Sequence record: SRR22947727_800
Length of the DNA: 34,800 nucleotides
Direction: 5' to 3' (one strand)
Within the stretch, counting starts at the first letter, position 1. Every line of letters starts with the position of its first letter. The position numbers and the translations under genes are program-made. Shown piece by piece: positions 4,901 to 34,592 of this stretch. Below the pieces are notes generated by a model that searched no databases, was not told where the DNA came from, and saw only the letters and a program-made list of their open reading frames with translations.

Positions 4901-5040
4901 GTGGTTTTGTTATGGCAGGAGATACAATTCGCCTTCAGAAATGGATAGACGTCTTCATAGAAATCGGGCTCCGCAGGGGCAGCGCTCGCAATGCCTGCCC
5001 CAACGAATGTCGCGAATAAAAATGTAAAACAGCGGATCAT
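1942..5040 (-). CDS. Planctomycete-type cytochrome c domain + WD40 repeat protein with coiled-coil inserts
   Basis: Signal peptide; NCISCHN heme motif followed by LNMET...IVPGKSAES...MPP...WIDLGA; many FSPDG..LASG..D...RIWD repeats; Ala/Lys-rich helical inserts. Confidence 0.9.
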   Translation of the reverse strand: MIRCFTFLFATFVGAGIASAAPAEPDFYEDVYPFLKANCISCHNKTTTKADLNMETPALMKKGGDSGPSIVPGKSAESLVVEASTHEFDLEMPPKNNKTDAVQLTTQEIAVLKTWIDLGAKDSVRQERKIVWQPLAPGVHPIYTLAMTEDGRYAACSRSNQIFLYDLATRQFVSQIADGAEQPAAAHKALVHSLAFSPDGTRLASGGFREVKIWKKTEISAATRKTNATLAAQVSAISSDGSKIVSADKNRALLVQNAADGTVIQKFDGIGKTAIKLLSISPDGAKVAVFSDGWNLNVLNLADGKQIASQETPDLTLSKLAKDGAVKLAAAVKAESAANAEVTKLKAGKAAAVKELATVKAEISKAPTPELQKKLTHANAKLGAATQAETKAIAASKTVLTQKSAAEKSSKEAAEKLNQSRKIVIQALAWTADGKAVVTAGDDKVARIWTLPASPGSGFPTPRELKGATGSITALAIGQSQVFAASTDNKIRIWNVADGKLIKEIATAGIVSLDASPTGKLLATGGADSAIRIWDVATGKQTVELRGSVSTSKKIAELDWAIARQTLEQAFQKTVVTKTEAQNKALDILLQKAKDAIVAMNKKLPVNEKAIKPTEEARAAEQKKVDEAKALIAKAPEGKADAAMEKSLKAAQDKLITAVTAENSAVAAFKAVQANITDSGAQVKRITETKVKNTTNIADSKATSEAAKKLQTTATTDLAALKKTLTTPAAKPLAVKFSANEQKVAVIFADGSLTVWASVSGIPVEQVSGVATSAASLALQKNGAFAACSADGTFTTTNLNSQWKLERTLGGEKNLEFFADRVNAVEFSPDGKILATGSGEPSRSGDISLFDAATGKWKSTWQERHSDCVVSLDFSPDGKLLASGAADKIARVTDIATGKQVNLFEGHTHHVTSVAFRADGRVLATAGADGVVNSWDMILGERKKKIIGWTKEVTSLQFIGATNKIVTSAGDNLIRIVNDDGAQIRSIAKLPDFMQAAASTPDGVTVIGGGEDSFLRIWDGTNGKELAAFGSN

Positions 5041-7334
5041 TTTTTCGCGGTTGTGGGCGCGGCTTTCGCTGGTTCAACTGGCTTTGCTTTCACCAAAATT
5101 CGAATCGGTTCTGACACCACGATATCAACGATGTCTTTTGGCGCCGCTGCTTTTGTGACGGCCTTCATTTTCGCCACTGCCTTCGTCATTTCCGCTTCGG
5201 CCGCTTTCTGCTTTTCTGCTGCGAGTTTGGCCGCTTTCTCAATTTCAGCTTTCTTATCCGTCGGCGCGCTCGCTACTTCAGACGCCATTTTCTTTGCCTT
5301 CGCCGCAATTGCCGCGGCTTTAGTTTCCGTTTTTTTCTGCTCGGCTTCAGCGGCTTTTACGGCATCCGGATTGTAGCGGTATTTAGTTATGGCTCCGCCG
5401 TAAAACGCGACGGTGTATACACCCGGTGGAACTTTCATTGCAGCCAAATCGAAAACCACGTCGTGCGCTTTCTTCTTCAACGGGATTTCTGTTCCCGGTG
5501 ATTTCTCAAACCCCGCACCGTGAACTTTCAATTTCACCGATGTGCCAGAGAATTCCTCGCGCCAAATTGCTTTGAGCGGAATAGTCAATTTTTCGCCCTC
5601 TGTCACTTCCCAAACTTTGTCCTTGCTCGCTGCGATGCTCAGCGATGCCTTTTCAGAATTGCTAACAGAAACCGGAATGTTGCCAACCAATCGTGGAGCG
5701 GGAATTTCAGATTTCGCATTTTTCACGGGCCATTCCATTGTCGCGAGGTGGCACGGACGCGTCACCGCAGCGTCACCGATGGTTGCGCTTCCTGAGATAC
5801 TCGCTAACGAAACTGTGTTTTTTGAATTTTCATCTGCCGTAACCACGACATGACCGACCGATTTTCCTTTAGGAATTTTCAAACCGCGCGCCGTCACTCC
5901 GGCTGGAAGGCCTTCCATTTTCAATTCGATATCACCATCGAACCCGTCACGGCGAATTGCCAAGACTTCGAGGATCATTGATCCACCTGCCCGCAGAGCG
6001 ATCGGTTTCGAAAAGGCAGCCCGATCTCCGTTTCGAAGGGTCATGTGCAAAGCCCACGCCGACAAATCAAAATCGGGCTGCGCTTTGCGAATAATAAGCC
6101 GGTATTTATTGGCTGGATCATTTCGAGTGCCGCCAAATAAATCTCGAACTTGAATTCGATGAACGCCGTCTTCTTTGATTTCAACCTGCCCCAACACATC
6201 GGGTGAACCCACGTTATAGGGAGGTCCATCGTAGGAATAGCCGTTCGACGACACCTTCACCGGACTTTTGATATCATAAAGCTCGGCAACATCTGTGAGT
6301 GTTTCTTTGCCTTTGGTTTCGGTAACCTTCTGAGCTAGCACGAATGGATCGGTTGGTAAACCGAGTCGCTCAGATGCTACTTCCACCCACCAGATCTCGC
6401 CTTTTTTCGCAGAAAACTCAAACGTATCAACATCAGCTGCGGGAAAGAAACTGCCTGATAAATCGCACGGCAGCGTGATTTTTTGGGCCTTGTCAGGTTT
6501 GTCATTCGGCTCTGCTTCCTGGCCTGGCGCATACGCCGCAATGCCTTCTGGCGGCCATGACATCGCACTCACCGTTTGAGTCGCCGGATGGCGCGGAGCT
6601 GGAACGCCTGCGGCGACCTCTTGCAATGCCAGTCGATAGAAGTGCCGAGCCCCGCCTTGATACGTCAGGTCGTTTACTTTCACCAAATAATCACCATCGG
6701 CTTCCGGTGTGAAATCTACCGCGCCGCCAGTTCGATTCACGAGCAAATCACGTCCTTCTGAATCAGCGATAATCACCACCGGCGTCAAACGCGAATCGAT
6801 CCCGACCGCTGCGCATTCAACAACGACGCGCTTTCCTTTCTTCGCCTTGAACGAATAAAAATCGATCATCCGCGTGGTCATTGTCGCGTTGGAAATCGAA
6901 TTTGTTTTAACAGCCATGGCCGTTTCAATCGAATTGTTTGCCACCGTGCGGGTTTGCTCCGGAATATTTCCAACAGTGAAAGCCCTTGGTGATGAGATTC
7001 CCAAACGCGACATCACGCGAACATCATGCACGCCGATCGGTGCGTCCGGAGCGATCGTCAGTACAAATTTGTTTTCGACCACAGCACCCTTTTCATCTTT
7101 AACCGGAACCGCGGTGATCTTTGGAGTCGAGAAAAGCATCTCCGTCACGCTTTCAATATTCTCACCCGTCAAAGTCACCTCCACCGTCGTACCAGCCTGA
7201 CCACCCATCGGCATTAGAGTCAGCAAACGAGGGAGCGGCAAGCCGACCAGTTGTGCGACTGCCGATTGGCCCTGACACAACACCAGCGCAGCGAGCGCAA
7301 AAGATAAAATCGATTTCGATTTTCGAGAAAACAT
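5037..7334 (-). CDS. PPC (pre-peptidase C-terminal-like) domain protein of the DUF1549 cluster
   Basis: Signal peptide, PMGGQAGTTVEVTLTG, DFYSFKAKKG, EAEPND and DVDTFEFSAKKG repeats; no catalytic protease motif seen; ATGA overlap with the next gene. Confidence 0.8.
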   Translation of the reverse strand: MFSRKSKSILSFALAALVLCQGQSAVAQLVGLPLPRLLTLMPMGGQAGTTVEVTLTGENIESVTEMLFSTPKITAVPVKDEKGAVVENKFVLTIAPDAPIGVHDVRVMSRLGISSPRAFTVGNIPEQTRTVANNSIETAMAVKTNSISNATMTTRMIDFYSFKAKKGKRVVVECAAVGIDSRLTPVVIIADSEGRDLLVNRTGGAVDFTPEADGDYLVKVNDLTYQGGARHFYRLALQEVAAGVPAPRHPATQTVSAMSWPPEGIAAYAPGQEAEPNDKPDKAQKITLPCDLSGSFFPAADVDTFEFSAKKGEIWWVEVASERLGLPTDPFVLAQKVTETKGKETLTDVAELYDIKSPVKVSSNGYSYDGPPYNVGSPDVLGQVEIKEDGVHRIQVRDLFGGTRNDPANKYRLIIRKAQPDFDLSAWALHMTLRNGDRAAFSKPIALRAGGSMILEVLAIRRDGFDGDIELKMEGLPAGVTARGLKIPKGKSVGHVVVTADENSKNTVSLASISGSATIGDAAVTRPCHLATMEWPVKNAKSEIPAPRLVGNIPVSVSNSEKASLSIAASKDKVWEVTEGEKLTIPLKAIWREEFSGTSVKLKVHGAGFEKSPGTEIPLKKKAHDVVFDLAAMKVPPGVYTVAFYGGAITKYRYNPDAVKAAEAEQKKTETKAAAIAAKAKKMASEVASAPTDKKAEIEKAAKLAAEKQKAAEAEMTKAVAKMKAVTKAAAPKDIVDIVVSEPIRILVKAKPVEPAKAAPTTAKK

Positions 7335-13767: not shown

Positions 13768-14889
13768 TCACTGGATTGTCGCTCGCAACGTCATCGAACC
13801 TCCGCTTCCACCTGTTGAAGTGAATGCGCTCCCGCCAGTTGTCCCGAAAAACGCCGAATTAAACTCCGAAGACGCATTCGAAAAACTTCCGATCGTGATA
13901 GTGGCTCCGCTTTTGACGGTCACAGTTGTCTTCAACCGAGTGTAGCTCACGTATTGATCAGCCTCGGTTAGGTGAGAGTTGATTGCCCGGTTTTGGACCT
14001 TCTGTGGGTCAACAATCACAATTGCCGAAACCTGCGGAATCACTTCAATCGTGATGAGGTCGCCCTGCACCGTTGGCCGCACCAACAGCTGTGTCCCTGC
14101 TTTTTCCCACCGAAATTCAGGCACTTTGAATTCGCCACCCAGAAAAATCTGCTGATTGAAATTTCCCGGCCCACGAATCAAAGGCGGCCCTTGGTTTCCC
14201 GCCGTGAATTGCGTAAAAAAATCGACTAGAGGAACTTCGCGGACAACTTCAAGCGTTCCAGTCCCGCCACTTTGAATCAGAATGAAACTCTTGTTCAGGC
14301 TGGAGGAGGTATTGCGCTGTTGGGTGATCCCGACATCAACTCCGCCTCGGGGCATGATGATATTCCCATTATTTGTCTGGATGGGACGACCGATTGGCCT
14401 CCCGTCAGCTGTGTTTTGGTGAATGATGCCGGGAGTTGTCGTCCCGTTTTGTCGAAACGGCTGATTGGTTCCACCGAAAACCCGCCCGCCTGAATTGACT
14501 CGCGGCGCTATATCAATCGTGCCTCCGCGCAGGTTGTTTCCGCTGATCGACATCGCCGTCACCTCGATTTTTACATTCACTGGTTTCTCGCCAAGCCTAG
14601 CCATGAACGCAGTCATCGCTTTGATATTTTCCGCAGTATCAACCACTCGAACGACACGCCGTGACGAAAGGATTACATACTTTCCACCCTCGCTCTTGAG
14701 TTCTTCGACCGTTTGTTTGACCCGACCGAAAACGGCAAACCCCGAAGGAATGTCTTTGCGAGTCATCCCCGGCGGAATGGTTTGAGTCGCTCTGACAGCT
14801 TCGACAAGCGGATTTTGCGCAGCGGCATCAGGAACTCCCGTGAGGGCGACAACTAAAGCAACGAACGAACCCGCAAATAACCGCTTCAT
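13768..14889 (-). CDS. Small secretin-like (type II/III secretion system domain) exported protein
   Basis: Signal peptide; VVDTAENIKAM...PVNVKIEV N-domain-like segment; GTQLLVRPTVQGDLITIEVIPQVS and LKTTVTVKSGATITIG, which resemble the secretin barrel. Confidence 0.65.
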   Translation of the reverse strand: MKRLFAGSFVALVVALTGVPDAAAQNPLVEAVRATQTIPPGMTRKDIPSGFAVFGRVKQTVEELKSEGGKYVILSSRRVVRVVDTAENIKAMTAFMARLGEKPVNVKIEVTAMSISGNNLRGGTIDIAPRVNSGGRVFGGTNQPFRQNGTTTPGIIHQNTADGRPIGRPIQTNNGNIIMPRGGVDVGITQQRNTSSSLNKSFILIQSGGTGTLEVVREVPLVDFFTQFTAGNQGPPLIRGPGNFNQQIFLGGEFKVPEFRWEKAGTQLLVRPTVQGDLITIEVIPQVSAIVIVDPQKVQNRAINSHLTEADQYVSYTRLKTTVTVKSGATITIGSFSNASSEFNSAFFGTTGGSAFTSTGGSGGSMTLRATIQ

Positions 14890-20347: not shown

Positions 20348-20806
20348 TCAGCAAATTTTCAAAAACGCAACCAACAGCACTCCAACTCGAGCAGTCCAGA
20401 TAAAGACGCGAATCCAGTTTACTTTGATGATCTCACGCACCGTCGTTTCGTTCCAGCCGGATTCGGCGAGAGACGCATGTTGCGGAACCTGAACGAAAAA
20501 CGTGACCATCCAGACAGCGGGGACGAGCAGGCCGGCAGTAACGATGTGCCAATGAATTTCGGAATCCCAAAAATACCAGACTCCAAGAATCGCGAAAATG
20601 AGCTCGGCGACCATGACTGGCCCGACGACCCATGACATCCGCTTCATGTAGCGGTCGTGATACTTGAGGAATCCGGATTGAGGAACTTCTAGAAATTGCG
20701 GATAGGTAACAATTTGAACCATCCAGATGATGCCCGCCATGGCGCAGGTGGCCAGAAGCTGGCCGAGTATGAGCAGCATCGATTTATCTACGGGAGTGAG
20801 TTCCAT
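20348..20806 (-). CDS. Conserved hypothetical membrane protein (about 4 TM helices)
   Basis: Four hydrophobic segments; IWMVQIVTYPQF...YH...VVGPVM and FVQVPQH...NWIRVFIW pattern. Confidence 0.75.
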   Translation of the reverse strand: MELTPVDKSMLLILGQLLATCAMAGIIWMVQIVTYPQFLEVPQSGFLKYHDRYMKRMSWVVGPVMVAELIFAILGVWYFWDSEIHWHIVTAGLLVPAVWMVTFFVQVPQHASLAESGWNETTVREIIKVNWIRVFIWTARVGVLLVAFLKIC

Positions 20807-21072
20807 TTGCTTATTTTCGCCGCATTTCCTGTTTTCGCATTGGCGTGGTGTCGATGAGTGAAAAAACGCTGCTTAAACGGCGGAAAAGGGCGCGCCACGT
20901 AATATCAGATCTCTCATTTCTAAAGGTAACGCTAACAGTGAAAAATCGGACAGCTTTGGTGATTTGAGTCTTTTTTTAGGAAACTGGCATTTTTTTCACA
21001 AATCACCTTGTCTAACCCAAAACCACGTGTGACCGATCCATGGTTAGGGCGGTTCCTTTTTCTGCCATTCCA

Positions 21073-23982
21073 ATGATCTCCTACGAAATCTCTGATCGAT
21101 TTATTGACGCTGGCGACGCCAGTGCGCTCCTTTACGCGCCGCTGGAATTTGACCTCACTTTCCGCAAGACCAGGCGTTACCTCTTTGAACTTGAAGACAT
21201 CGGGGGAGATTCGACGGCTGCGTTAGCGCGTTTCGTGAAGCGCACTCTGCTCGATGAGGCGTCGCAAGAGCTGTTCATTGACCAGAACGCCTGTGATGAT
21301 TGGCTTTTCATGATCGAATACGGCATGAAGCCGGGTGGTCTCGATTTGGAAAAAGAAGCGATCCGCGCCCGATTTCAGGGACGGTCTCAGGAGTTGGGCT
21401 TCCATCCCAACCGCTTTGATTTGCACCAGCGGGTTTACGTTTTTGGTGATCTTGCCGAAGACGTCAGTGTTGAAGAGGTTGCGAAAACGTTTGTGAAAGA
21501 CGTCTGCAACCCGGCTATTCACAAATCTACGATTCATTATCCGAGTTCGCAGGCTTTGACGGGAAATGCGCTGATGGATCGGATCACGACGCATCCTACC
21601 GATTTTTATCGCCGCTTTAAGATTTCTGATCTCAATGAAGACGAGCTGTTTGAAATCAGTCAGTTCCTCAAGCTGTCGCTTTCTAAAGTGGACATGCTGG
21701 CAGTTCAAAAAATCTACGCTGATTGGAACCGCGAGCCGACTGATGTTGAGCTTGAGGTCATCGCGCAGACTTGGAGTGAGCACTGCAAGCACCGGATTTT
21801 CGGGGCGACGATAGCCCACGACGGACCTGACGGTGCCGAGGCGATCAATTCGCTTTTCAAGACTTACATTTACGATGTGACGAATCGCATCATGGAACGG
21901 AAGCCGGGCTTCGTGCTTTCGTGTTTCCATGACAACGCGGGTTTCATCAAGCTCGATGACAAACAGGCCGTTTGTTTGAAAGCCGAGACGCACAATCACC
22001 CGTCGGCGCTTGAGCCGTATGCGGGTGCAAATACCGGTCTTGGTGGCGTGATTCGTGATATTTTGGGGGCGGGTAAAGGCGCCAAGCCGATTGCCTCGCT
22101 CGATGTTTTTTGCTTTGGCCCGCCAGATACTCCTGCTGAAAAAATCGGTGCGGAAGACGTGATTCACCCACTTGGCGTGATGCGCGGCGTGGTTCGTGGC
22201 GTTCGCGATTACGGAAACCGGATGGGAATTCCCACGGTGAGCGGCGCGATTCAGTTCGACGACGCCTATATCTATAACCCGTTGGTTTACTGCGGAACAG
22301 CCGGTGTGATTCCAAATGGCGACATCGACAAAGAAATGTCCGCCGGCCTGAAAATTGTTGCCGTTGGTGGCAAAACGGGCCGTGACGGGATCAAAGGTGC
22401 GACGTTCTCATCAGCCGCGCTCGATACCGATTCACACGAAGAAGATCAGACTGCGGTTCAGATTGGAAATCCGATCGAAGAGAAAAAGGCAGCTGATTTT
22501 GTCCTCGCTGCTCGCGATGCGGGGCTGATCGAATTTGTGACCGACTGCGGTGCGGGTGGATTTTCCAGCGCCTGCGGTGAAATGCTCGAAGACGTTGGTG
22601 GTGAAATCAATCTCGATACGATGCCGCTGAAAGAGCAGGGCATGGTTTCGTGGGAGCTGTTTATCTCTGAAAGTCAGGAGCGCATGGTTTTGGCCGTGAA
22701 AGAAGAGTCGCTTCCGCAGCTTCAAGAAATTGCTGATCGATGTGAAACCGAAATGGCGGTGCTAGGTGATTCCGATGGCTCGGGAATTTTGAAAGTAAAG
22801 CATCACGGCGAGACCGTGTGTGAACTTGATTGTTCCGCGCTTCACGATGCGCCGATTCGTCAGATGAAGTCGAAGTGGACTTCAAAGCCTGATGCGGCAG
22901 CTGCTCCGACGATTTCTAATTTGGGCGAAGCCCTTCGCGATGTCCTGTCTGACTTCGCAGTCGTTTCGCGCGAGCCAATCATTCGTGAATACGATCACGA
23001 AGTTCAAGGCAACACCGTTCAGAAACCACTCGCAGGTGCCTCCGGCGATGCTCCGCAAGATGCGGCGGTCATGCGGATTGATGGATCGGATAAACTCATG
23101 GCGATGGGGCTTTCTGTCCTGCCGGAGTGGGGAAAAACCGATCCATACGCGATGGGAACGGCTTGTGTCGATGAGTGTTATCGTCAGCTCGTTGGTGCCG
23201 GCTCAAATCCTGAGCGTATTGCAATTCTCGATAACTTTTGCGGCGGAAACCCCGACAATCACGAAGAACTTGGTGCACTGGTCGAAACGGTGAAAGGCAT
23301 TGCGGTTGCTGCGGATGCTTATTCTGCACCGTTTGTTTCCGGTAAAGATTCGTTCTACAACTATTTCGAAACAAAGGACGGTCCTGTTTCAATTCCGGTA
23401 ACCATTCTGATTTCCGGAATGGGAATCGTCGAAGATAAATCACATGTCGTTGGCGCATCGCTTCGTCGTTCGAATAGCGTGGTCGCCGTTCTCGGAACCA
23501 CTGGTAACGAACTTGGTGGCAGCGTTTTGGCTCGCCAGCTTGAGCACATTGATGCAGTTCCTCAGACTGATCTCGAAACGAATCTTGCTCTGTATAACGC
23601 CTATTACGAAGCGCTTAAAAATGGCTGGATTCTTTCCGCTCACGACGTTTCTGAAGGTGGACTCGCTGGAGCGCTCGCTGAATTTGCTTTCTCTGGAAAA
23701 GGCGGGCTTGAATTGAATCTCGATCAATTGCCAACCGACGGCGACGTTTCAAAAGTGGCTCTGCTTTTCGCGGAAACTCCCGGCCGATTCGTAATCGAGA
23801 TTGCACCGGAAAATCGCGAAGCGGTTGCTGCGCATTTTGCAGATCACGCCTACGGTGAAATTGGAACTGCCACTGATTCGCACACGAATTTGAATATTGA
23901 ATGGGGCAAAGAAACCCTGATCAACGAACCGCTTTCTGAACTGAAATCGTTATGGAAAAACGGCCTCGCGCCCTACTACTAA
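21073..23982 (+). CDS. purL: Phosphoribosylformylglycinamidine synthase PurL with an N-terminal PurS-like extension
   Basis: EPTDVELEVIAQTWSEHCKH, KAETHNHPSALEPYAGANTG, DCGAGG, SESQERM, SGKDSFYN and AHDVSEGG; ATG 21073 preferred over 21040. Confidence 0.95.
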   Translation: MISYEISDRFIDAGDASALLYAPLEFDLTFRKTRRYLFELEDIGGDSTAALARFVKRTLLDEASQELFIDQNACDDWLFMIEYGMKPGGLDLEKEAIRARFQGRSQELGFHPNRFDLHQRVYVFGDLAEDVSVEEVAKTFVKDVCNPAIHKSTIHYPSSQALTGNALMDRITTHPTDFYRRFKISDLNEDELFEISQFLKLSLSKVDMLAVQKIYADWNREPTDVELEVIAQTWSEHCKHRIFGATIAHDGPDGAEAINSLFKTYIYDVTNRIMERKPGFVLSCFHDNAGFIKLDDKQAVCLKAETHNHPSALEPYAGANTGLGGVIRDILGAGKGAKPIASLDVFCFGPPDTPAEKIGAEDVIHPLGVMRGVVRGVRDYGNRMGIPTVSGAIQFDDAYIYNPLVYCGTAGVIPNGDIDKEMSAGLKIVAVGGKTGRDGIKGATFSSAALDTDSHEEDQTAVQIGNPIEEKKAADFVLAARDAGLIEFVTDCGAGGFSSACGEMLEDVGGEINLDTMPLKEQGMVSWELFISESQERMVLAVKEESLPQLQEIADRCETEMAVLGDSDGSGILKVKHHGETVCELDCSALHDAPIRQMKSKWTSKPDAAAAPTISNLGEALRDVLSDFAVVSREPIIREYDHEVQGNTVQKPLAGASGDAPQDAAVMRIDGSDKLMAMGLSVLPEWGKTDPYAMGTACVDECYRQLVGAGSNPERIAILDNFCGGNPDNHEELGALVETVKGIAVAADAYSAPFVSGKDSFYNYFETKDGPVSIPVTILISGMGIVEDKSHVVGASLRRSNSVVAVLGTTGNELGGSVLARQLEHIDAVPQTDLETNLALYNAYYEALKNGWILSAHDVSEGGLAGALAEFAFSGKGGLELNLDQLPTDGDVSKVALLFAETPGRFVIEIAPENREAVAAHFADHAYGEIGTATDSHTNLNIEWGKETLINEPLSELKSLWKNGLAPYY

Positions 23983-24671
23983 AATTCCCTGGCACGAACT
24001 GCGACGCTGAAACGGCGCGCGCACTTACGTCTGTAGGATTTGAAGCGGAAATCGCTCCCAGCTCAACGCTCACGCGGGAAATGCTCGATGGCGTCAGCCT
24101 CGTGGTGCTCGTCGGTGGCTTTAGCTACGGGGATTATGTCATGTCCGGCCGAATTGCGAAGCTAGTGACCGAAAATAAAATCGGCGACGCACTGAAGGGA
24201 TTTCGCGATGGCGGCGGCTATCTACTCGGTATTTGCAATGGCTTCCAGATCCTGACGCAGCTCGGCTTGTTACCTGATTGCAGCCTCGTTCACAACACCA
24301 GCGGTCGTTATCAGTGCAAATGGTCGATGCTGAAAAATCACGCGCCGAACAGCCCGTATCTTTCGAAATTACCTGAAGAATTCGAATTTCCGTACGCTCA
24401 TGCAGAGGGACGCCTTGTCACTGCTGATCCAGCCGATGCCAAAAAACTCGTCGCCGATGGATTCGCCGCGCTGACCTACTCAACTGATGAAAACGGCAGC
24501 TTCGAGCAGATCGCCGGGCTTCAGGATGAAACGGGCCGCGTGCTTGGATTGATGCCGCACCCCGAGCGTTTCATGGAGCGCGAAGATCATTACGATCCCG
24601 ATTGGGACAAACAGGAGCGCGGCAACGGCCATTACCTTTTTGCATCCCTTTTTGAAGCCGTATCAAAATGA
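23952..24671 (+). CDS. purQ: FGAM synthase glutaminase subunit PurQ
   Basis: FPGTNCD, GGFSYGD, GICNGFQ (catalytic Cys), AHAEG and GLMPHPER; overlaps the purL end by 31 nt. Confidence 0.95.
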   Translation: MEKRPRALLLKFPGTNCDAETARALTSVGFEAEIAPSSTLTREMLDGVSLVVLVGGFSYGDYVMSGRIAKLVTENKIGDALKGFRDGGGYLLGICNGFQILTQLGLLPDCSLVHNTSGRYQCKWSMLKNHAPNSPYLSKLPEEFEFPYAHAEGRLVTADPADAKKLVADGFAALTYSTDENGSFEQIAGLQDETGRVLGLMPHPERFMEREDHYDPDWDKQERGNGHYLFASLFEAVSK

Positions 24672-24673
24672 TG

Positions 24674-24726
24674 TTTTTCGAAACAACAGGGTCTGTTTGC
24701 CAAACCAACCCTATTGGTTCGTGGAG
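24674..24726. repeat. Inverted pair of the ~22-bp dispersed repeat, copy 2
   Basis: 19-bp identity with 17097-17115 and 16-bp identity (CTATTGGTTCGTGGAG) with 34630-34645. Confidence 0.75.
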
Positions 24727-24729
24727 GTG

Positions 24730-24838
24730 GGTAGGGACGATTGTCCCCAATCGTCCGCGAAGCCTATCGGATCGAAGCAACCTGACCGAAGTAGACCCGC
24801 CGTTGCATTGCGGACGATTGGGGACAATCGTCCCTACC
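24730..24838. repeat. GTAG-family REP doublet (REPIN-like)
   Basis: Perfect 29-bp inverted repeat GGTAGGGACGATTGTCCCCAATCGTCCGC (24730-24758 / 24810-24838) with a 51-bp spacer; each arm is GTAG plus a 9-bp-stem palindrome. Confidence 0.85.
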
Positions 24839-24880
24839 TGCCTTTCATTTTAAATTTGCCGATTTTCTAAAACACCCGCC

Positions 24881-25879
24881 ATGTCCGAAAACGAATCATT
24901 CACTTACAAAAACGCCGGAGTCGATATCCACGAAGCGGCTGCGCTGGTTGGCGATATCAATGACCTCCGCCAACGAACTGAGGGCGGGCGCCAGCTGATG
25001 CAGGCGTTTGGTCTTTTCGCAGCGAGCTACGATTTGTCCGACTACAAACAACCGGTCATTGTGACAGGTTGTGATGGAGTCGGCACGAAGCTGGAGCTTT
25101 TACTCGAATACGATCTGCTCGAAATCGCCGGAAAAGATCTGGTGGCGATGAATGTGAACGACATTCTCACGACCGGCGGCGATCCACTGATGTTTCTCGA
25201 TTACGTCGGTGTTGGCGCGATCGATAAAACGAAGATCAAACGACTGATCTCCGGAATGGCCGAGCATTTGGAGAGCTGCGACTGCATTCTCGCGGGCGGC
25301 GAAACGGCTGAGATGCCGGGAATCGTGCCGGATAACATGGTCGAGCTGAGCGGATTTTGCGTCGGTGCGGTGGAGAAGCCTGAAATGATCGATCCGACTC
25401 GAGTTGAAGTCGGTGATGTCCTGGTTGGCTATCCATCCGATGGATTTCACGCGAACGGCTGGAGTTTGATTCGCAAAATCATCGCGGCATTTCCCGACGA
25501 AGTGACTCGCGAAGAAATGGCTGAAATGCTGGCTCCGACTCGTTTGTATCACGATGCGTGCGCGGGCCTTAAGGCGGCTGGCGCGGATGTTCGAGCCTAC
25601 GCTCACATTACCGGCGGCGGACTTCCTGAAAACCTCGAGCGTTTGCTCGGTGAAAAAGGAGCCGCGATTACCATTCCGAAATGGGAGCTCGGAGCGGTTC
25701 AGAAAATTTTGCAACACGTAGACACCGAGAAGGACGCGATCGACACCTTCAACATGGGTTGGGGCTGGGTCGCGATTATTCCTGCAGCAGATGCTGAAAA
25801 AGCGACATTATTTCACGAAGGAGCGAAAGTTCTTGGCGAAGTGACCGACGGAGGTGGTGTGAACGTCCAAATAGGATAA
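24881..25879 (+). CDS. purM: Phosphoribosylformylglycinamidine cyclo-ligase (AIR synthase)
   Basis: YKNAGVDI, DGVGTK, DLVAMNVND, GGETAEMPG, GFHANG, AHITGGG and TFNMG. Confidence 0.97.
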   Translation: MSENESFTYKNAGVDIHEAAALVGDINDLRQRTEGGRQLMQAFGLFAASYDLSDYKQPVIVTGCDGVGTKLELLLEYDLLEIAGKDLVAMNVNDILTTGGDPLMFLDYVGVGAIDKTKIKRLISGMAEHLESCDCILAGGETAEMPGIVPDNMVELSGFCVGAVEKPEMIDPTRVEVGDVLVGYPSDGFHANGWSLIRKIIAAFPDEVTREEMAEMLAPTRLYHDACAGLKAAGADVRAYAHITGGGLPENLERLLGEKGAAITIPKWELGAVQKILQHVDTEKDAIDTFNMGWGWVAIIPAADAEKATLFHEGAKVLGEVTDGGGVNVQIG

Positions 25880-25899
25880 CCGACCAGCTTCATTAACAA

Positions 25900-27879
25900 A
25901 TGAGCGACTCAATCAATCACGAATGCGGCTTGGCCTTTATCCGGCTGAAGAAACCGCTCGGCTATTACAACGACAAATACGGCACGCCGTTGTGGGGATT
26001 TCAGCGGCTCTATTTGTTGATGGAGAAGCAGCACAACCGTGGTCAGGACGGCATCGGGATTGGTTGCTGCAAGTTGAACCCTCCTCTCGGGAAGCCTTAT
26101 ATTTTCCGTGAACGAAACGCGAAACGGGATTCACTAATAAAAGTGATGGAGGACCAGTTGTCGACTTTTGCGAAGCTGGAACGACGTGGGAAAATCACTT
26201 CAGATGAAGTCGGCAAGAATGGAAAGCCGCTGATCGATCCTGACAAATTCAAAGATCAATTCGATTTTGGCGGCGAACTGCTGTTGGGGCATTTACGATA
26301 TGGAACATCAGGTCGGCTGGGTTCTGGGGGGTGCCATCCCTACCTGAAGCGCACTAGCTGGCCTACGAAAACGCTGATGGTGGCCGGCAATTTCAACATG
26401 ACCAACGCGCGTGATTTGAATCACCATCTGATCGAGCGTGGTCAGCATCCGATTTTCGATACCGATACGCAGACGGTGCTGGAAGAGATCGGCTTCAATC
26501 TCGAAGAAGCCCACGATGCGGTTTATCACCGTGAACGAGATAAAGGAACGCCAGGACAGGAAATTCCGGGGATCATTTCAAAAGAAATCGATATCCGCCG
26601 AATTTTGGAAAAATGTGGGAACGTTTGGGATGGCGGTTATGCGATTGCCGGAGCCATCGGAAATGGTGATGGCTTTGTCCTTCGTGATCCCAGCGGAATT
26701 CGCCCCTGCCATTATTACGAAGATGACGAGGTGATCGCTTTTGCAAGTGAGCGGGTGCCGTTGATGACGGTTTTTGCCTGCGAAAAAGGTGATGTTCGCG
26801 AACTTGAACCCGGGCATGTTGCGGTGATGAAGCGGCAACAGGGAACGATCGCGACGGAGCTTCAGATCGAGAAATTTGCTGAACCACTTGAATTCAAACC
26901 ATGTTCGTTCGAGCGCATTTATTTTTCACGCGGAAATGATCCAACGATTTATCAGGAACGCCTTGCTCTAGGTCATGCACTGGTACCGCAAATTCAAAAA
27001 GCGATTAACAACGATTTTGGGAAAGCGGTCTTCAGTTTTGTGCCGAATACGGCGGAGATTGGTTACCACGGAATGATGGACGGATTGCGTCGCGCGCGTC
27101 GTGAGGAAGTCCGCGATCAACTGTTGGCGGCGGTCGCTGACGGATCGATCAATGCGGATTTGATCGATGATTTGATTATGGGGAATTGGCCGAAGGGCGA
27201 AAAAATTACCCATAAAGACATCAAGCTGCGGACCTTTATCAATCAGGAAAAAGGCCGTGACCAGATGGTGTCTCACGTTTACGACATCACTTATGGCATC
27301 GTGAAAGAAGACGATACCTTGGTGGTAATTGATGATTCAATTGTGCGCGGAACCACTCTGCAAAAGTCGATTCTAAAAATTCTGACGCGGACCAATCCGA
27401 AGAAAATCGTGATTGTCTCAACCGCGCCTCAGATCCGCTATCCCGATTGTTACGGCATCGATATGTCCGAGCTTGGGAAATTTATCGCCTTTCGCGCGGC
27501 TGCGAATTTGCTGGAAAAACGCGGCCTTCACAATGTGAAGATCGACGTATACGCCGCCTGCAAAGCGGAGTTGGAAAAGCCGGTCGAAGAGCAGGTGAAT
27601 TGCATGAAGGCCTTTTACGAGCCGTTTACAGCGGAAGAAATTTCAGCTGAAATTGCCGAGATCGTTTATCCAACGGACGTTCAGTGGAGTGGTGAAATTG
27701 AAGTAATTTATCAGACAATCGAAAGCCTTCACGGAGCGATTCCGGTTCACAATGGCGATTGGTATTTCACCGGAAATTTCCCTACGCCTGGAGGCACCAA
27801 GATTGCGAATCAGGCCTATATTTCCTATATCGACGGAGATGAAGAGCGGCCTTACGACATGCTGCCGCTCAATTCTTGA
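25900..27879 (+). CDS. purF: Amidophosphoribosyltransferase (long type)
   Basis: HE|CG N-terminal nucleophile, QHNRGQDG, GHLRYGT, CSFERIYFSR, DDSIVRGTT PRPP loop and YGIDM. Confidence 0.95.
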   Translation: MSDSINHECGLAFIRLKKPLGYYNDKYGTPLWGFQRLYLLMEKQHNRGQDGIGIGCCKLNPPLGKPYIFRERNAKRDSLIKVMEDQLSTFAKLERRGKITSDEVGKNGKPLIDPDKFKDQFDFGGELLLGHLRYGTSGRLGSGGCHPYLKRTSWPTKTLMVAGNFNMTNARDLNHHLIERGQHPIFDTDTQTVLEEIGFNLEEAHDAVYHRERDKGTPGQEIPGIISKEIDIRRILEKCGNVWDGGYAIAGAIGNGDGFVLRDPSGIRPCHYYEDDEVIAFASERVPLMTVFACEKGDVRELEPGHVAVMKRQQGTIATELQIEKFAEPLEFKPCSFERIYFSRGNDPTIYQERLALGHALVPQIQKAINNDFGKAVFSFVPNTAEIGYHGMMDGLRRARREEVRDQLLAAVADGSINADLIDDLIMGNWPKGEKITHKDIKLRTFINQEKGRDQMVSHVYDITYGIVKEDDTLVVIDDSIVRGTTLQKSILKILTRTNPKKIVIVSTAPQIRYPDCYGIDMSELGKFIAFRAAANLLEKRGLHNVKIDVYAACKAELEKPVEEQVNCMKAFYEPFTAEEISAEIAEIVYPTDVQWSGEIEVIYQTIESLHGAIPVHNGDWYFTGNFPTPGGTKIANQAYISYIDGDEERPYDMLPLNS

Positions 27880-27933: not shown

Positions 27934-29145
27934 ATGATCGAAGAACTCGAAGCGCGAAAACGAATTTTAGAGAGCACCTCCAGTGGCCCCGTGATGTGGG
28001 TTCCGATTTCGATGGCGGTTGATGGAGTCGCGGCCGAAACACTTGGTGCTCGATTGGATTGCCCGGTTTTCGATAATTCGTCGATGGACGGTTATGCGGT
28101 TCGCGCTTCGGAATGTCGAACCGGAGATACACTGAACGTCGCCGGTCAAGTCCAAGCTGCAGGGCCAGATCTTGATCTGATTCTTAAGCCCGGCGAAGCC
28201 CTGCGAATTTTTACAGGAGCCGCCATTCCGCGCGGTGCGGATGCCGTTATCATGCAGGAGGATGTCGAATTTGTGGATGATGAGCGGACGGCGATTCGAA
28301 TTGTCGAAGGGGTTGAGCTTGCCGAGAACATTCGGCGGCGGGGTTCTGATGTCTGTGAAGGTCAGCGAATTCTCTCAAAAGGGGAGCGTATCAAGCCTAC
28401 GACGATTGGTTTGCTTGCCTCGCAAGGACTTCCCAACGTGCCGATTTTTTCGCGACCAATGGTGAATATTGTGACAACGGGAGACGAGCTGGTTGAGACT
28501 GGTGAATGGCTTGGCGAAGGCGAAATTTACAATAGCAATGGACCCATGCTTACAGCGGCAGTTGAAAGACTGGGAGGCATTGCTGCGCGATTTCACGCGA
28601 TGGATGATCGTGGGCATCTTCGCTCGGTATTGGAAAATGCGCTTCACACGGGGGACTTTGTGATCATTGCGGGCGGCGTTTCGGTGGGCGATCGCGATTT
28701 TGTAAAAGAAACCCTGACCGATCTGGGGGTGACCACTGAATTTTGGCGAGTGAATGTAAAGCCCGGTAAACCCTTCGTTTTTGGGCGATTCGAAGATCGG
28801 GTGTCTGTTTTTGGTCTGCCGGGAAATCCAGTTTCTGCGTTCGTGACCTTTTCGATGTTTGCCGGTCCGGCGATTCAAAAATGGCTAGGCAAAAAAGATG
28901 TTTCCGTAGATCAACCTGCCCTGGAATCGTTTTCGGGAGTGCTTGGCACGGACCTCGAAAATCGGGGTGACCGCCCCCATTACCTTCGAGTGAAAGTGGA
29001 TCGTGAAAACGGAAATCGGATCACTCCATTCGGAGTTCAGCAAAGTCACGCCGTTCACGGGCTTGCGCAGGCTGATGCATTGGTGCGGTTGGCTGCATCT
29101 GAAAGTCTGCAGTCCGGTCAAAGCGTTACTGGTTGGTGGATTTGA
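27934..29145 (+). CDS. moeA: Molybdopterin molybdenumtransferase (gephyrin-like)
   Basis: FDNSSMDGYAV, IFTGAAIPRGADAVIMQE, TGDEL, GGVSVGDRD, VKPGKP and GLPGNPVS. Confidence 0.95.
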   Translation: MIEELEARKRILESTSSGPVMWVPISMAVDGVAAETLGARLDCPVFDNSSMDGYAVRASECRTGDTLNVAGQVQAAGPDLDLILKPGEALRIFTGAAIPRGADAVIMQEDVEFVDDERTAIRIVEGVELAENIRRRGSDVCEGQRILSKGERIKPTTIGLLASQGLPNVPIFSRPMVNIVTTGDELVETGEWLGEGEIYNSNGPMLTAAVERLGGIAARFHAMDDRGHLRSVLENALHTGDFVIIAGGVSVGDRDFVKETLTDLGVTTEFWRVNVKPGKPFVFGRFEDRVSVFGLPGNPVSAFVTFSMFAGPAIQKWLGKKDVSVDQPALESFSGVLGTDLENRGDRPHYLRVKVDRENGNRITPFGVQQSHAVHGLAQADALVRLAASESLQSGQSVTGWWI

Positions 29146-31099: not shown

Positions 31100-31476
31100 A
31101 GCGGCTGGCGAAAAGCATGCGCCACGGCTTTCGGGGAATCGCGACAACGTTTCGTTCTGAGCCTAATTTTCGAATCCATTGCGTTCTCAGTGTAGCGGCG
31201 GTCATTTTTGGAATCGCCCTTCACATTTCGTTGGGCGAGTGGGTCGCGGTGGTTTTTGCGATCGGTTTTGTCATGGCTGCGGAAGCTTTGAACACAGCGA
31301 TCGAAAAACTTGCAGATCGAGTCGAGCCGGAAATTGATCCAGCGATTGGAGTGGCGAAAGACGCTTCGGCAGCTGGTGTTTTGATCACAGCCATTGCAGC
31401 CGGCGTGGTCGGCGCTATCATATTCCTACCGAAATTATGGAATTGGCTGAATCTGCTTCTGGAAGCGCTGAATTGA
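31096..31476 (+). CDS. dgkA: Diacylglycerol/undecaprenol kinase family protein
   Basis: EPNFRIH, EALNTAIEKLAD and AKDASAAGVL; three TM helices. Confidence 0.92.
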   Translation: MKRLAKSMRHGFRGIATTFRSEPNFRIHCVLSVAAVIFGIALHISLGEWVAVVFAIGFVMAAEALNTAIEKLADRVEPEIDPAIGVAKDASAAGVLITAIAAGVVGAIIFLPKLWNWLNLLLEALN

Positions 31477-32849
31477 AGGACTGGATCCCCGATTTGGTGG
31501 ATTTGTTGGGCGAAAGTGTGGTCTCTGTGCGAGACGATGATCTGGCGACCCACAGTGTCGACAAATGGTATGCATCAAATCCGCCGGAAGCCGTTGTTCT
31601 GGCAAAGTGCCGTGAAGACGTTGTAAAAACGATGCGGTTTGCGAACGAGCGCAATATTCCCGTGACGACGCGTGGAGCCGGGGTGGGTTACGTTGGTGGC
31701 GCCGTTCCGATGTCGGGCGGCATTGTACTCTCCGTTCGAGGAATGGATGCGATCCGCGAAATCAATCCGGCGGATGGTGTTGCGGTGGTCGAACCGGGCG
31801 TGATTTTAGATGATTTGCAAACCGCTGCTCGCGAGCTTGGCTGGTATTACCCACCTGATCCAGCGAGTTTGAAAGAGTGCTCCATCGGCGGAAATGTCGC
31901 GACGAATGCAGGTGGACCGCGTTGTCTGAAATACGGAGTGACGCGGCATTATATCCTTGGATTGGAAGTGGTTCTCGCCAACGGAGAGGTGCTGCAAACG
32001 GGTGGTCGTTGCCACAAGAACAAAACCGGATTTGATCTCATTGGTATGTTTGTGGGTTCAGAAGGGCTTCTCGGAGTTGTTACCGAAATCACTCTGCGGC
32101 TCATTCCGCATCCCGAAGCGCGAGCGATGTTGACCGTGACGTTCCCTGAATTTTCTGACGCAGCAGCGGCAGTTCAGGCAATTTTAAATTCACGTTGGCA
32201 ACCTTCAGCGCTGGAAATCACGGATGGCTTCACCTTGGCGGCAGCTCGTAAACGCCTGGGCCCCGAAGCATTGCCGGATGGGAATGCGCACCTGATTGTC
32301 GAAATCGATGGCCGTGAAAAATCGTTGCCAGGTGAACTTGCCGAGCTGCGGGCTTTTCTGGAATCGCTCAAGGCCATCGAAATTGGCGAGGCAACGGATG
32401 ATAAAAGCTGCGAAGCGATCTGGAAATTGCGCCGTGAATTTTCCTATTCGCTGCGGGACACGGGGCTGATTAAATTGAATGAAGACATCGTCGTGCCGCG
32501 TTCTAAGTTGGTGGAGTTGGTGAATTTTGCTCGAAAATTACAAGATGAAACGGGGATTCCCGTGGCTTGTTTTGGTCATGCGGGTGACGGAAATATCCAC
32601 ACAAATTTAATGGTCAAAGATTACGATATTGATCCCGTGGCTCGCGAAAAAGCGGATGCCGCGCTCGATGTGCTCTTCAAATGGGTGCTGGCCCAGGGCG
32701 GTGCGATCACAGGTGAACACGGCGTTGGCTTGGCGAAAAAACGTTGGTTCGGCGATGCTGTTTCGGACGTGAGTCGCGCGGTCCATCGTGATTTGAAAGC
32801 AACGCTCGATCCGAAGGGCATTTTGAATCCCGGGAAATTTGTGGAGTGA
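31473..32849 (+). CDS. FAD-linked oxidase, GlcD/D-lactate dehydrogenase family
   Basis: RGAGVGYVGG, YPPDPAS, SIGGNVATNAGG, GSEGLLG, GHAGDGNIH and GEHGVG; likely TTG start at 31473 (TTGA overlap), alternative ATG at 31437. Confidence 0.92.
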   Translation: MKDWIPDLVDLLGESVVSVRDDDLATHSVDKWYASNPPEAVVLAKCREDVVKTMRFANERNIPVTTRGAGVGYVGGAVPMSGGIVLSVRGMDAIREINPADGVAVVEPGVILDDLQTAARELGWYYPPDPASLKECSIGGNVATNAGGPRCLKYGVTRHYILGLEVVLANGEVLQTGGRCHKNKTGFDLIGMFVGSEGLLGVVTEITLRLIPHPEARAMLTVTFPEFSDAAAAVQAILNSRWQPSALEITDGFTLAAARKRLGPEALPDGNAHLIVEIDGREKSLPGELAELRAFLESLKAIEIGEATDDKSCEAIWKLRREFSYSLRDTGLIKLNEDIVVPRSKLVELVNFARKLQDETGIPVACFGHAGDGNIHTNLMVKDYDIDPVAREKADAALDVLFKWVLAQGGAITGEHGVGLAKKRWFGDAVSDVSRAVHRDLKATLDPKGILNPGKFVE

Positions 32850-32913
32850 ATTCAAATAAGTTCTTAGCCGTTTCAAATTGCATCCACGATCTGATTCGAT
32901 ACGTTTCAACATC

Positions 32914-33144
32914 ATGAAGATTTCCATCGAATACTGCGGCCAGTGAAACTACGAGCCTTCGTCTGCCAGTTTGGCAGCAAAGATTCTCGAGAAAATTCCT
33001 TCAGCTGAAATCGACCAAATTCGTGGAGGAGGCGGTGACTTTATCGTCATCGCTGACGGGCAAAAATTGTGGGACAAAAATGGTCCGGATGACGGATTCC
33101 CCAACGATGAGGTATTGGCTGGCAAAATCGCGGCGCTTGCCTGA
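32914..33144 (+). CDS. Rdx family (SelW/SelT/SelH-like) selenoprotein, 76 aa, Sec encoded by TGA 32944-32946
   Basis: Manual translation: MKISIEYCGQ(U)NYEPSSASLAAKILEKIPSAEIDQIRGGGGDFIVIADGQKLWDKNGPDDGFPNDEVLAGKIAALA*. It shows the family pattern I.IEYCxxU.Y...G..G.F.V..DG..LW.K....GFP and fills the gap between the oxidase and mgtE. Confidence 0.9.
32957..32982 (+). promoter_or_regulatory. Putative bacterial SECIS element
   Basis: CUU-C-G(U bulge)CUGCCA-GUU-UGGCAGC-A-AAG hairpin; the apical loop starts with GU, 22 nt after the UGA. Confidence 0.7.
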
Positions 33145-33185
33145 TTTCCGTTTGCCAAAATTGTCAGGTCGTCGTCTCTGACACG

Positions 33186-34592
33186 ATGCCTGATTCTGCC
33201 ACAGTTTATCCTCAACCGCTCGACGTCGAAACGATTGTCGAAGTGCTGGAGAGTGATGACGAAGCGAGAATCGTCGACGTCTGTAAAAGGGCGCATCCAG
33301 GCGATGTCGAGGAAGCGCTGGAACGACTCGATGATGGGGAGCGTGAAGCAATTCTTCACATGCTTCCGTCCGACCTTTTCACGAGTGATTTGATCAATTA
33401 TCTCGATGCGGGTGACGTCGAGAAGAAGCTGCAAACGCTGCCCGAAACCGAGCAAGCGGAAGTGCTTGATGCGATGGATGACGATGAACTCGTCGACTTG
33501 TTGCAAGAGGTTTCGGATGAGCAGCGGCCTCAGCTGATCGAGCTTCTGCCGGAGAAAAAGCAGGCGGTATCCGAGGAGCTTTTGCAGTTTGAGGAAGAAA
33601 CTGCCGGTGGCCGGATGACCACCGCGATGGGGAAGATTCATGAGTCGTGCACTGTTGCTGAAGCTCTGGCGATTCTTGAAAAGATGAAGGAGGAAACCGA
33701 AGTTCTCAGTCGTATTTTTGTGGTGGGAGACAATGATCAATTGATCGGGAAAATTCGCCTTCGTGATCTCGCTTTCGGTGAAAAAACGGCCTTGGTCGGC
33801 AATTTGGCTGATGACGACCAAATGTCGATTCAGGTGGGCGCAGACCAGGAGGAGGCGGCAAACATGATCGCTCGTTATGATTTGGTCGCGCTTCCTGTCG
33901 TTGATGCTGAGGGGCGATTGCTTGGGGTTATTACCCACGACGACGCGATGGAGATTTTCGAGGAAGAGGCCACTGAGGATATGGAGATGATCTCCGGTAT
34001 TGGCGGTGAACGTGGCGAGCTTTCCTACCTTCAGACTTCGGTTTTTGGACATGTGAAACGTCGCTTCGGCTGGGTTCTGGTTCTCGCATTTCTCGCGTTG
34101 GCGTCGGGCGTGGTTATGCACATGTACGAGAATGTTTTAAAAGCCTACTACGTGCTGGTTATTTATCTTCCCATGGTCGTTGCCGCGGGTGGAAATACCG
34201 GTGGGCAAGCGGCGACGATGATTATCCGCGCGATGTCGCTGGGGGAATTAGGCCCTGGAGAATTTACTAGAGTTGTCTTTAAAGAGATGCGTGTTGGCAT
34301 GATCTTGGGGGCGTTGCTCGGAGTTTGCGTCGCCGTTCAGATTCAATTTCTGCTTCCTCAGAGCGTTCTCGGTGAGGGCGATTCGCTCATTCGAATTGCT
34401 GCCGTGGTTGGGATTTCATTGCTCGCGCAAGTGACGACGTCGACTTTGATCGGTGCTGCTTTGCCTCTCATTGCGCGAGCGGCAAAACTCGATCCAGCCG
34501 TGGTCGCTTCACCTGCGATCACCACGTTAGTCGATGTCAGCGGCTCGATCATATACTTCGCGCTTGCGAGTGCATTGATGGCGTCTGGGTGA
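33186..34592 (+). CDS. mgtE: Magnesium transporter MgtE
   Basis: Acidic N-domain, ETAGGRMT, CBS pair (YDLVALPVVD, GVITHDD), GGNTGGQA and DPAVVASPAITTLVDVSG. Confidence 0.96.
   Translation: MPDSATVYPQPLDVETIVEVLESDDEARIVDVCKRAHPGDVEEALERLDDGEREAILHMLPSDLFTSDLINYLDAGDVEKKLQTLPETEQAEVLDAMDDDELVDLLQEVSDEQRPQLIELLPEKKQAVSEELLQFEEETAGGRMTTAMGKIHESCTVAEALAILEKMKEETEVLSRIFVVGDNDQLIGKIRLRDLAFGEKTALVGNLADDDQMSIQVGADQEEAANMIARYDLVALPVVDAEGRLLGVITHDDAMEIFEEEATEDMEMISGIGGERGELSYLQTSVFGHVKRRFGWVLVLAFLALASGVVMHMYENVLKAYYVLVIYLPMVVAAGGNTGGQAATMIIRAMSLGELGPGEFTRVVFKEMRVGMILGALLGVCVAVQIQFLLPQSVLGEGDSLIRIAAVVGISLLAQVTTSTLIGAALPLIARAAKLDPAVVASPAITTLVDVSGSIIYFALASALMASG

Follow-up and report, generated by a model that had tools for sequence, protein, structure and literature searches.

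A probable selenocysteine-decoding SelW-like (Rdx) gene in DNA of an uncultured marine member of the Verrucomicrobiales

The question raised by the locus described here is whether a TGA codon within a short reading frame is a stop or a codon for selenocysteine (Sec). The locus lies near the end of SRR22947727_800, a DNA stretch of 34,800 nucleotides (nt) that was analysed at its full length and is referred to as the window. In an initial annotation, made from the letters of the window, a hidden selenoprotein gene of the Rdx/SelW type was placed at positions 32914-33144, and it was expected that standard gene callers would miss or truncate it. The results presented below indicate that this segment of the + strand is very probably a Sec-decoding SelW-like (Rdx) gene of an uncultured marine bacterium of the Verrucomicrobiales, the incorporation of selenium being a prediction from sequence.

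When the window is read directly, the frame opens with ATG at 32914-16 on the + strand and continues with codons 2-10 (KISIEYCGQ), after which it meets a TGA at 32944-46 and then runs through 65 sense codons to a TGA stop at 33142-44; this agrees exactly with the structure first annotated. With the internal TGA translated as U, the read-through product has 76 residues, MKISIEYCGQ-U-NYEPSSASLAAKI...GGGGDFIVIADGQKLWDK...GFP...ALA. The elements of the gene are the following.

32914..33144, + strand: predicted SelW-like / Rdx selenoprotein gene, 76 codons with residue 11 taken as Sec, plus the TGA stop
32935..32937, + strand: TGC codon of Cys8, which opens the CxxU redox motif, from the reading and the alignment to CxxC homologues
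32944..32946, + strand: in-frame TGA of residue 11, read as selenocysteine on the basis of its alignment with the second Cys of CxxC and of its conservation
32971..33144, + strand: truncated open reading frame (ORF) of 57 amino acids (aa) with a TTG start, given by standard ORF finding in place of the real gene

The expected failure of gene callers is borne out on two counts. In the six-frame ORF list, the sole entry for the gene is the 57-aa ORF from the TTG at 32971 to 33144. In a collection of 5.8 billion proteins, five matches were found (clusters P0002-P0006), all 55-57 aa long with a query coverage of 66-74%, and one of these truncated proteins is 100% identical to the window. Since the database forms are all of this length, gene callers have truncated the gene and its close relatives alike.

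The read-through product is of the Rdx type, as had been proposed. In profile searches, in which U was passed as C, it matches Pfam Rdx (PF10262) with 53.2 bits against a cut-off of 22.6 (E = 3.6e-14), the match extending from residue 2 to residue 72, across the TGA, and over positions 1-72 of the 74 in the profile. The NCBIfam model TIGR02174 (CXXU_selWTH) is matched with 46.2 bits (cut-off 34.2), and the best NCBIfam E-value (3.1e-18, 65.8 bits) is that of the equivalog NF041051 (SelTWH_Campy). Among PDB sequences, phmmer finds seven Rdx-family entries at E <= 1.2e-4, including 2ljk at 3.1e-07. In the phmmer alignments, residues 8 and 11 fall on both Cys of CEPC in 2ljk, of CTQC in 3dex and of CTQC in 2fa8; therefore, the TGA stands at the second redox position, in line with the second Cys of CxxC in solved Cys homologues, which is where the initial annotation had put it.

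The model predicted by AlphaFold from an alignment of 30 relatives has a mean predicted local distance difference test (pLDDT) of 94.6 and a predicted template modelling score (pTM) of 0.83. Its secondary-structure elements (E2-8, H14-27, E32-38, E43-47, E50-54 and H65-75) follow the topology b1-a1-b2-b3-b4-a2, and the motif C8-G-Q-U11 is placed between strand E2-8 and helix H14-27. In Foldseek comparisons, query-based template modelling scores (TMq) of 0.86-0.91, with root-mean-square deviations of 1.1-1.5 A, are obtained for 2obk, 2fa8, 2oka, 2p0g, 2ojl and 3dex, the scores of the five bacterial structures 2fa8, 2obk, 2p0g, 2ojl and 2oka being 0.88-0.91. Scores are lower for mouse SelW (2npb, 0.79), MIEN1 (2ljk, 0.70) and thioredoxins (~0.6). 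The profile matches to PF10262 and TIGR02174, together with a predicted rather than solved thioredoxin-like fold, thus place the product in the Rdx family and, within it, in the SelT-SelW-SelH subfamily.

If the TGA is a Sec codon, it should be found in relatives as well, and 101 genomes of the same bacterial family, representing 30 genera, were searched with the protein. Matches, 43 altogether, were obtained in 42 of the 101 genomes and in 16 of the 30 genera. All 43 contain an in-frame TGA (one TGA in 24 matches, two in 19), and a form with Cys only is absent among these 43 matches from 42 of the 101 same-family genomes. In the 30 loci of relatives that were read in detail, the TGA is at the second redox position without exception, the codons upstream of it are conserved as M-x-(I/V)-x-I-x-Y-(C/U)-x-x, and the column of residue 8 is occupied by Cys or Sec in every case. 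The codon is likewise TGA in a relative of the same genus with 80% identity. An in-frame UGA at a Cys position, conserved as UGA in orthologues, is the pattern by which a selenoprotein gene is recognized, and its presence here argues for such a gene. The Rdx match across the TGA and the 43 in-frame TGAs in 43 matches also mean that the read-through reading is more than chance. According to an excerpt of PMC1794560, Cys homologues of SelW-like proteins are few or absent in organisms that contain Sec, a scarcity with which the 43 of 43 found here agrees.

The codon itself was also checked, as the initial annotation had proposed, and no other letter occurs at 32944-46 in the contigs of three DNA runs, each from a separate study. 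The contigs of X3 and X10 span the whole stretch, and a piece from X15 covers 32700-32971 with 0 differences. X3 and X10 are near-identical and may be the source of the window DNA, so that only X15 is clearly independent; five further runs carrying the stretch are flagged as possible sources of the window DNA. Beside the gene, an A-to-C difference is seen at 32908, 6 nt 5' of the start codon, in contigs of X10 (DNA) and of X17 (an RNA library), both from study P6, and looks like a strain variant.

In bacteria that decode UGA as Sec, the codon would be expected to be followed by a selenocysteine insertion sequence (SECIS), and a candidate is present shortly downstream.

32963..32977, + strand: SECIS-like upper stem-loop with a 6-bp stem CUGCCA/UGGCAG and loop GUU, beginning 16 nt past the UGA
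32949..32991, + strand: extended hairpin with lower stem, internal loops and an unpaired U19, from the minimum free energy fold of the single sequence

The arms of the upper stem are 32963-68 and 32972-77, and the distance from the UGA to the loop is 22 nt; the range that bSECISearch allows for this distance is reportedly 16-37 nt. For comparison with relatives, the 48 bases from the TGA onward were aligned without gaps in 30 sequences (29 of them distinct). A hairpin in fixed register is seen in this alignment, columns 18-25 pairing with 29-36 around a loop of columns 26-28 in which G26 and T27 are invariant. Paired cells amount to 86.2%, against 15.9-52.2% when the 3' partner is slid by 1-3 columns. 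The number of cells changed on both sides is 26 (8.7 in shuffles) and the covariation score is 0.392 (0.209 in shuffles), values that are each reached by 0 of 500 shuffles.

Two of the pairs, 21-33 and 24-30, connect third codon positions and are paired in all 29 distinct sequences; in the window they correspond to 32964/32976 and 32967/32973. Pair 21-33 joins Ala or Ser codons (GCC/GCU/UCU) to Ala codons (GCG/GCA), and pair 24-30 joins Ala (GCC/GCU) to Leu (UUG/UUA); pairing at such positions would be hard to explain by selection at the protein level. The consensus fold of RNAalifold for the 30 sequences contains pairs 20-34, 21-33, 23-31 and 24-30, which are paired in all sequences and show compensatory changes in three of the pairs, and does not contain the lower stem. 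Judged by genus labels, with no tree, several independent changes seem to have taken place in the hairpin pairs. The comparison thus suggests a SECIS-type hairpin downstream of the UGA that is conserved and covarying, its single-sequence stability being non-significant.

The incorporation of Sec also calls for a dedicated machinery, and the initial annotation had accordingly expected the Sec trait in the organism. The search was made in a genome (G001) that is 100% identical to the window over 32600-33500; it comprises ~6 Mb in 230 contigs and is 95% complete with 1% contamination. Homologues of selA (496.3 bits, cut-off 267.9), selB (283.2 bits, cut-off 242.25) and selD (278.5 bits, cut-off 125) are present. 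The SelB ORF, of 647 aa, contains GTP_EFTU, the SelB beta-barrel, SelB-wing_2 and SelB-wing_3, the SECIS-binding end included. A tRNA-Sec, cut at its 3' end, is located at L014:1-84 on the - strand of contig C113, where cmscan of the locus gives 51 bits (gathering threshold 47); it has a 6-bp D stem, an anticodon loop CUUCAAA with the anticodon UCA, and a long variable arm. By homology, therefore, selA, selB, selC (tRNA-Sec) and selD appear to occur together in one genome, that of the 100%-identical G001, and the expectation of a Sec trait is upheld to this extent. As a separate observation, selD in this genome (L010:1393-3639, - strand, contig C43) is a fusion of 748 aa without an in-frame stop, in which a pyridine-nucleotide-disulphide oxidoreductase (Pyr_redox_2, residues 13-304) at the N-terminus precedes the selenophosphate synthetase portion (AIRS/AIRS_C).

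The gene also co-occurs with the machinery across the family. A selA above the cut-off is found in 56 of the 101 same-family genomes and, by a comparison made by hand, in 38 of the 42 that bear the gene. Of the remaining four, two carry a selA fragment, which in G055 lies at a contig end and in G013 measures 135 aa, and two have none (G081, 80% complete, and G087, 53% complete). All 16 gene-bearing genera lie within the 19 selA-bearing genera, and the 11 genera that lack a selA match also lack the gene.

These results suggest the following course of events. Translation would be initiated at the ATG at 32914. At the UGA at 32944-46 there would be no termination; instead, SelB-GTP carrying Sec-tRNA(Sec) with the anticodon UCA would be tethered by a SECIS hairpin in the coding region, namely the upper stem-loop at 32963-32977 with its loop GUU, 16 nt past the UGA. 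Selenocysteine would be inserted at residue 11, and elongation would proceed until the UGA at 33142-44, which would act as an ordinary stop. The product would have a minimal thioredoxin-like fold with Cys8-x-x-Sec11 between strand 1 and helix 1. By analogy with the family, the protein may be a small thiol-dependent oxidoreductase or antioxidant, whose motif would alternate between a selenenylsulfide and a selenol/thiol pair.

A number of observations weigh against the decoding of Sec as proposed. With respect to the protein, the cut-off of 88 bits for the NF041051 equivalog is missed by the read-through product (65.8 bits), and the window protein is therefore not a member of that equivalog. 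With respect to the hairpin, the segment 32935-33010 (76 nt), when folded alone, is no better than its shuffles (z -0.62; 45 of 200 shuffles as stable), for which reason the SECIS claim rests on the comparison with relatives. Within that comparison, neither the pairs changed on both sides (4, reached by 393 of 500 shuffles) nor the further pair types (12, reached by 32 of 500) are above shuffles, and the RNAalifold consensus, whose energy of -2.1 kcal/mol is weak, consists of just 4 pairs. Most relatives have two outer pairs, 18-36 and 19-35, and these are absent from the window. The aligned sequences are kin, so that the events are fewer than the cells counted, and the hairpin is inside a conserved coding sequence.

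The remaining points of this kind concern the machinery, the codon check and the signals around the gene. The 3' end of the tRNA-Sec is lost at the contig end, so that the 8-bp acceptor stem is invisible; ARAGORN calls no tRNA in this locus, and the whole-genome Rfam scan of G001 for tRNA-Sec gave sub-threshold rows only. (The other sub-threshold rows are mostly ordinary tRNAs, identified by ARAGORN as Leu, Ser, Gly, Trp and Tyr.) Surveys of the Sec trait in metagenome-assembled genomes (MAGs) that are based on selC alone would overlook this genome. The machinery genes are on other contigs than the selenoprotein gene in a fragmented assembly, and a binning error is conceivable. The codon at 32944-46 was checked in contigs, not in raw reads, so that rare variants are dropped and the majority sequence only is seen. 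Finally, a scan of 32700-33300 finds no promoter-like site, and no Shine-Dalgarno-like motif precedes the ATG.

The recoding of UGA as selenocysteine, which the initial annotation had claimed, is nevertheless supported by the family, by the position of the codon, by the machinery, by the hairpin and by the conservation of the UGA, and it may be compared on this basis with three other explanations. According to the first, the UGA codes for a standard amino acid and no selenium is involved, either because the codon has been reassigned to Trp or Gly throughout the genome, a change reported in some Verrucomicrobiota, or because near-cognate read-through inserts Cys or Trp. Such a reading gains something from the fact that, when selenium is scarce, Cys can be mis-inserted by the Sec machinery. 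It is also favoured by the listing of Verrucomicrobiota, in part of PMC13462651, among the phyla with UGA-to-Trp reassignment. However, TGA is the stop of 14 of the 22 long ORFs in the window, most of them Pfam-complete, including both neighbouring genes and the selenoprotein gene itself, and genome-wide reassignment is therefore excluded for this organism. Moreover, Trp or Gly would be a misfit in a column that is Cys in all aligned solved homologues, and the full Sec gene set is present in G001. The decoding of this UGA as a standard amino acid is thus considered very improbable.

The second explanation is that of a dead or truncated gene, in which a Cys codon (TGC or TGT) has mutated to the nonsense codon TGA and at most the 57-aa ORF is made. 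The change from TGY to TGA takes one substitution, and both the ORF list and the public proteins of 55-57 aa are what would be expected from it. This is opposed by the presence of the TGA in 43 of 43 matches from 16 genera and by the protein-level conservation of the ten codons 5' of it in all 30 loci, since a nonsense mutation would not persist, together with its preceding codons, across so many genera. A 57-aa product, judged from the predicted fold, would be missing strand 1 as well as the redox motif, and neither the covarying hairpin after the TGA nor the co-occurrence with selA fits a dead gene, which makes this explanation extremely improbable. The third, an assembly or sequencing artefact at the TGA, has a negligible probability in view of the agreement of the X3, X10 and X15 contigs at the codon and of the same TGA in all relatives, including the 80%-identical one. 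Nothing was found in its favour beyond the general risk that attaches to any single metagenome assembly.

With the Sec-decoding reading retained, the host and the surroundings of the gene may be considered. The gene is flanked by two genes on the same strand.

31437..32849, + strand: flavin adenine dinucleotide (FAD)-linked oxidase (GlcD-like), upstream, separated by a 64-nt gap and ending in a TGA stop; Pfam FAD_binding_4 and FAD-oxidase_C
33186..34592, + strand: MgtE magnesium transporter, downstream, separated by a 41-nt gap; Pfam MgtE_N, CBS and MgtE

The nearest named relatives of the GlcD-like neighbour, among 80 records, are MAGs of Verrucomicrobiales, Akkermansiaceae and Roseibacillus, in keeping with the 'probable verrucomicrobium' first suggested as the host. 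The stretch occurs in runs labelled as marine, seawater, aquatic or brine metagenomes. In a regular-expression search that may miss divergent forms, an Rdx CxxU gene lies no more than 3 kb to either side of the GlcD-like gene in 1 of the 80 relatives' loci, the 89%-identical one. The adjacency is not conserved, and the neighbours are not proposed to be functionally linked to the gene.

The scan of 32700-33300 for terminators gives one terminator-like site, which is within the upstream coding region and is no more than is found in shuffles. As neither a promoter-like nor a convincing terminator-like site is found between the genes, co-transcription is possible. Contigs of the RNA library X17 cover 32715-32943 and 32943-33278, the two pieces meeting at 32943; they are not proof of transcription, because DNA can occur in such libraries.

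Some other features of the window may be mentioned. An open frame of 390 aa at 32949-34121 on the - strand runs antisense to mgtE and shares sequence with the 3' part of the selenoprotein gene; it is most likely a shadow ORF, because the + strand carries a complete MgtE_N/CBS/MgtE. In the window there are 288 in-frame-TGA candidates, of which 51 pass the length filter; by eye these resemble known ORF stops or shadow frames, and further selenoprotein genes may be among them. Three long ORFs, all on the - strand, have no Pfam family at E <= 1e-5: 5037-7334 (765 aa), 13768-14889 (373 aa) and 20348-20806 (152 aa). The first of them sits between PSCyt2/PSD1 (DUF1549/DUF1553) and WD40/PSCyt1 genes, beside a DUF1501 gene; clusters of PSCyt2/PSD1, WD40/PSCyt1 and DUF1501 genes are typical of Planctomycetes and Verrucomicrobia. 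A purine-synthesis block extends over 21040-27879 on the + strand, with a purL-like FGAM synthase (AIRS/AIRS_C, FGAR-AT linker), a purQ-like GATase_5, a purM-like AIRS and a glutamine amidotransferase, and is followed by moeA at 27934-29145, an ordinary housekeeping context.

The relatives differ among themselves at the first redox position. In 12 of the 30 loci examined in detail (L037, L039-L041, L043-L048, L050 and L052), the first redox codon is TGA as well as the second, giving Y-U-G-x-U-N-Y, and two TGAs occur in 19 of the 43 matches; the window gene itself is of the single-Sec type. The UxxU genes start at about 1501 in gene orientation, except for those of L040 (313) and L045 (375). 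Downstream there is again the same single hairpin, so that two UGAs lying 9 nt apart would depend on one SECIS. A UxxU form of SELENOW is known from amphioxus and Ostreococcus, according to an excerpt of PMC7539508. In the tables of two prokaryotic reviews (PMC9312934, PMC13188914), SELENOW-like proteins are entered only as CxxU with 1 Sec, and UxxU is entered for other families only. It may be supposed, with about even chances of being right or wrong, that the SelW-like protein of this bacterial family is selenoprotein-only, that its first redox position toggles between Cys and Sec, and that the UxxU form (~2/5, in sister genera) is diselenide-forming and has one hairpin for its two UGAs. If this were so, the window gene would represent the single-Sec state, and the family would be useful for studying the spacing tolerance of the bacterial SECIS/SelB system.

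With regard to its wider meaning, the gene adds one marine lineage with the Sec trait and with the commonest marine selenoprotein; it raises no new mechanistic question. Its practical value is one of annotation: because the public forms are truncated and without the active site, the selenoproteomes of Verrucomicrobiales MAGs are under-counted when no Sec-aware step is used. Since its neighbourhood differs among relatives, the window member gives no clue to what bacterial SelW-like proteins do.

Among known systems, the Cys-type bacterial Rdx proteins are represented by the structures 2fa8 (Agrobacterium Atu0228), 2obk (P. fluorescens), 2p0g (V. cholerae), 2ojl (Bordetella), 2oka (P. aeruginosa) and 3dex (Streptomyces SAV_2001). 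They have the same fold as that predicted here, 27-34% identity, and the redox motif in the same place. In contrast to the window protein, which has the predicted Sec and 76 aa, their motif is CxxC and they are ~100-108 aa long as deposited. Mammalian selenoprotein W (2npb) and MIEN1 (2ljk) are members of the same Rdx family, and SelW likewise has CxxU. Eukaryotic SelW has its SECIS in the 3' untranslated region and uses SBP2/eEFSec, whereas the element proposed for the window is a hairpin in the coding region for bacterial SelB.

The closest counterpart is the prokaryotic SelW-like family. In an excerpt of PMC1088965, SelW-like CXXU proteins are the top selenoprotein family by abundance in the Sargasso Sea data, with 48 genes. 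Part of PMC2398784 places the SelW-like (CxxU) family first among those of the Global Ocean Sampling data, with 427 selenoproteins and 56 Cys homologues, and describes it as commoner in marine samples. The reviews of 2022 and 2026 (PMC9312934, PMC13188914) tabulate SELENOW-like (PF10262) as CxxU with 1 Sec. The term 'Verrucomicrobi*' is absent from the main text of PMC2398784, PMC9312934, PMC13188914 and PMC1794560, the supplements of which may list taxa. The window gene shares with this family the domain, the length of ~75 aa, the N-terminal CxxU with Sec second, the marine origin, and, shortly downstream, a putative SECIS hairpin whose small apical loop contains a G. There is no difference in kind, the host here being an uncultured genus of Verrucomicrobiales. 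The family, the motif and the mechanism have been in print since 2005, and the window gene is an ordinary member of this well-described family.

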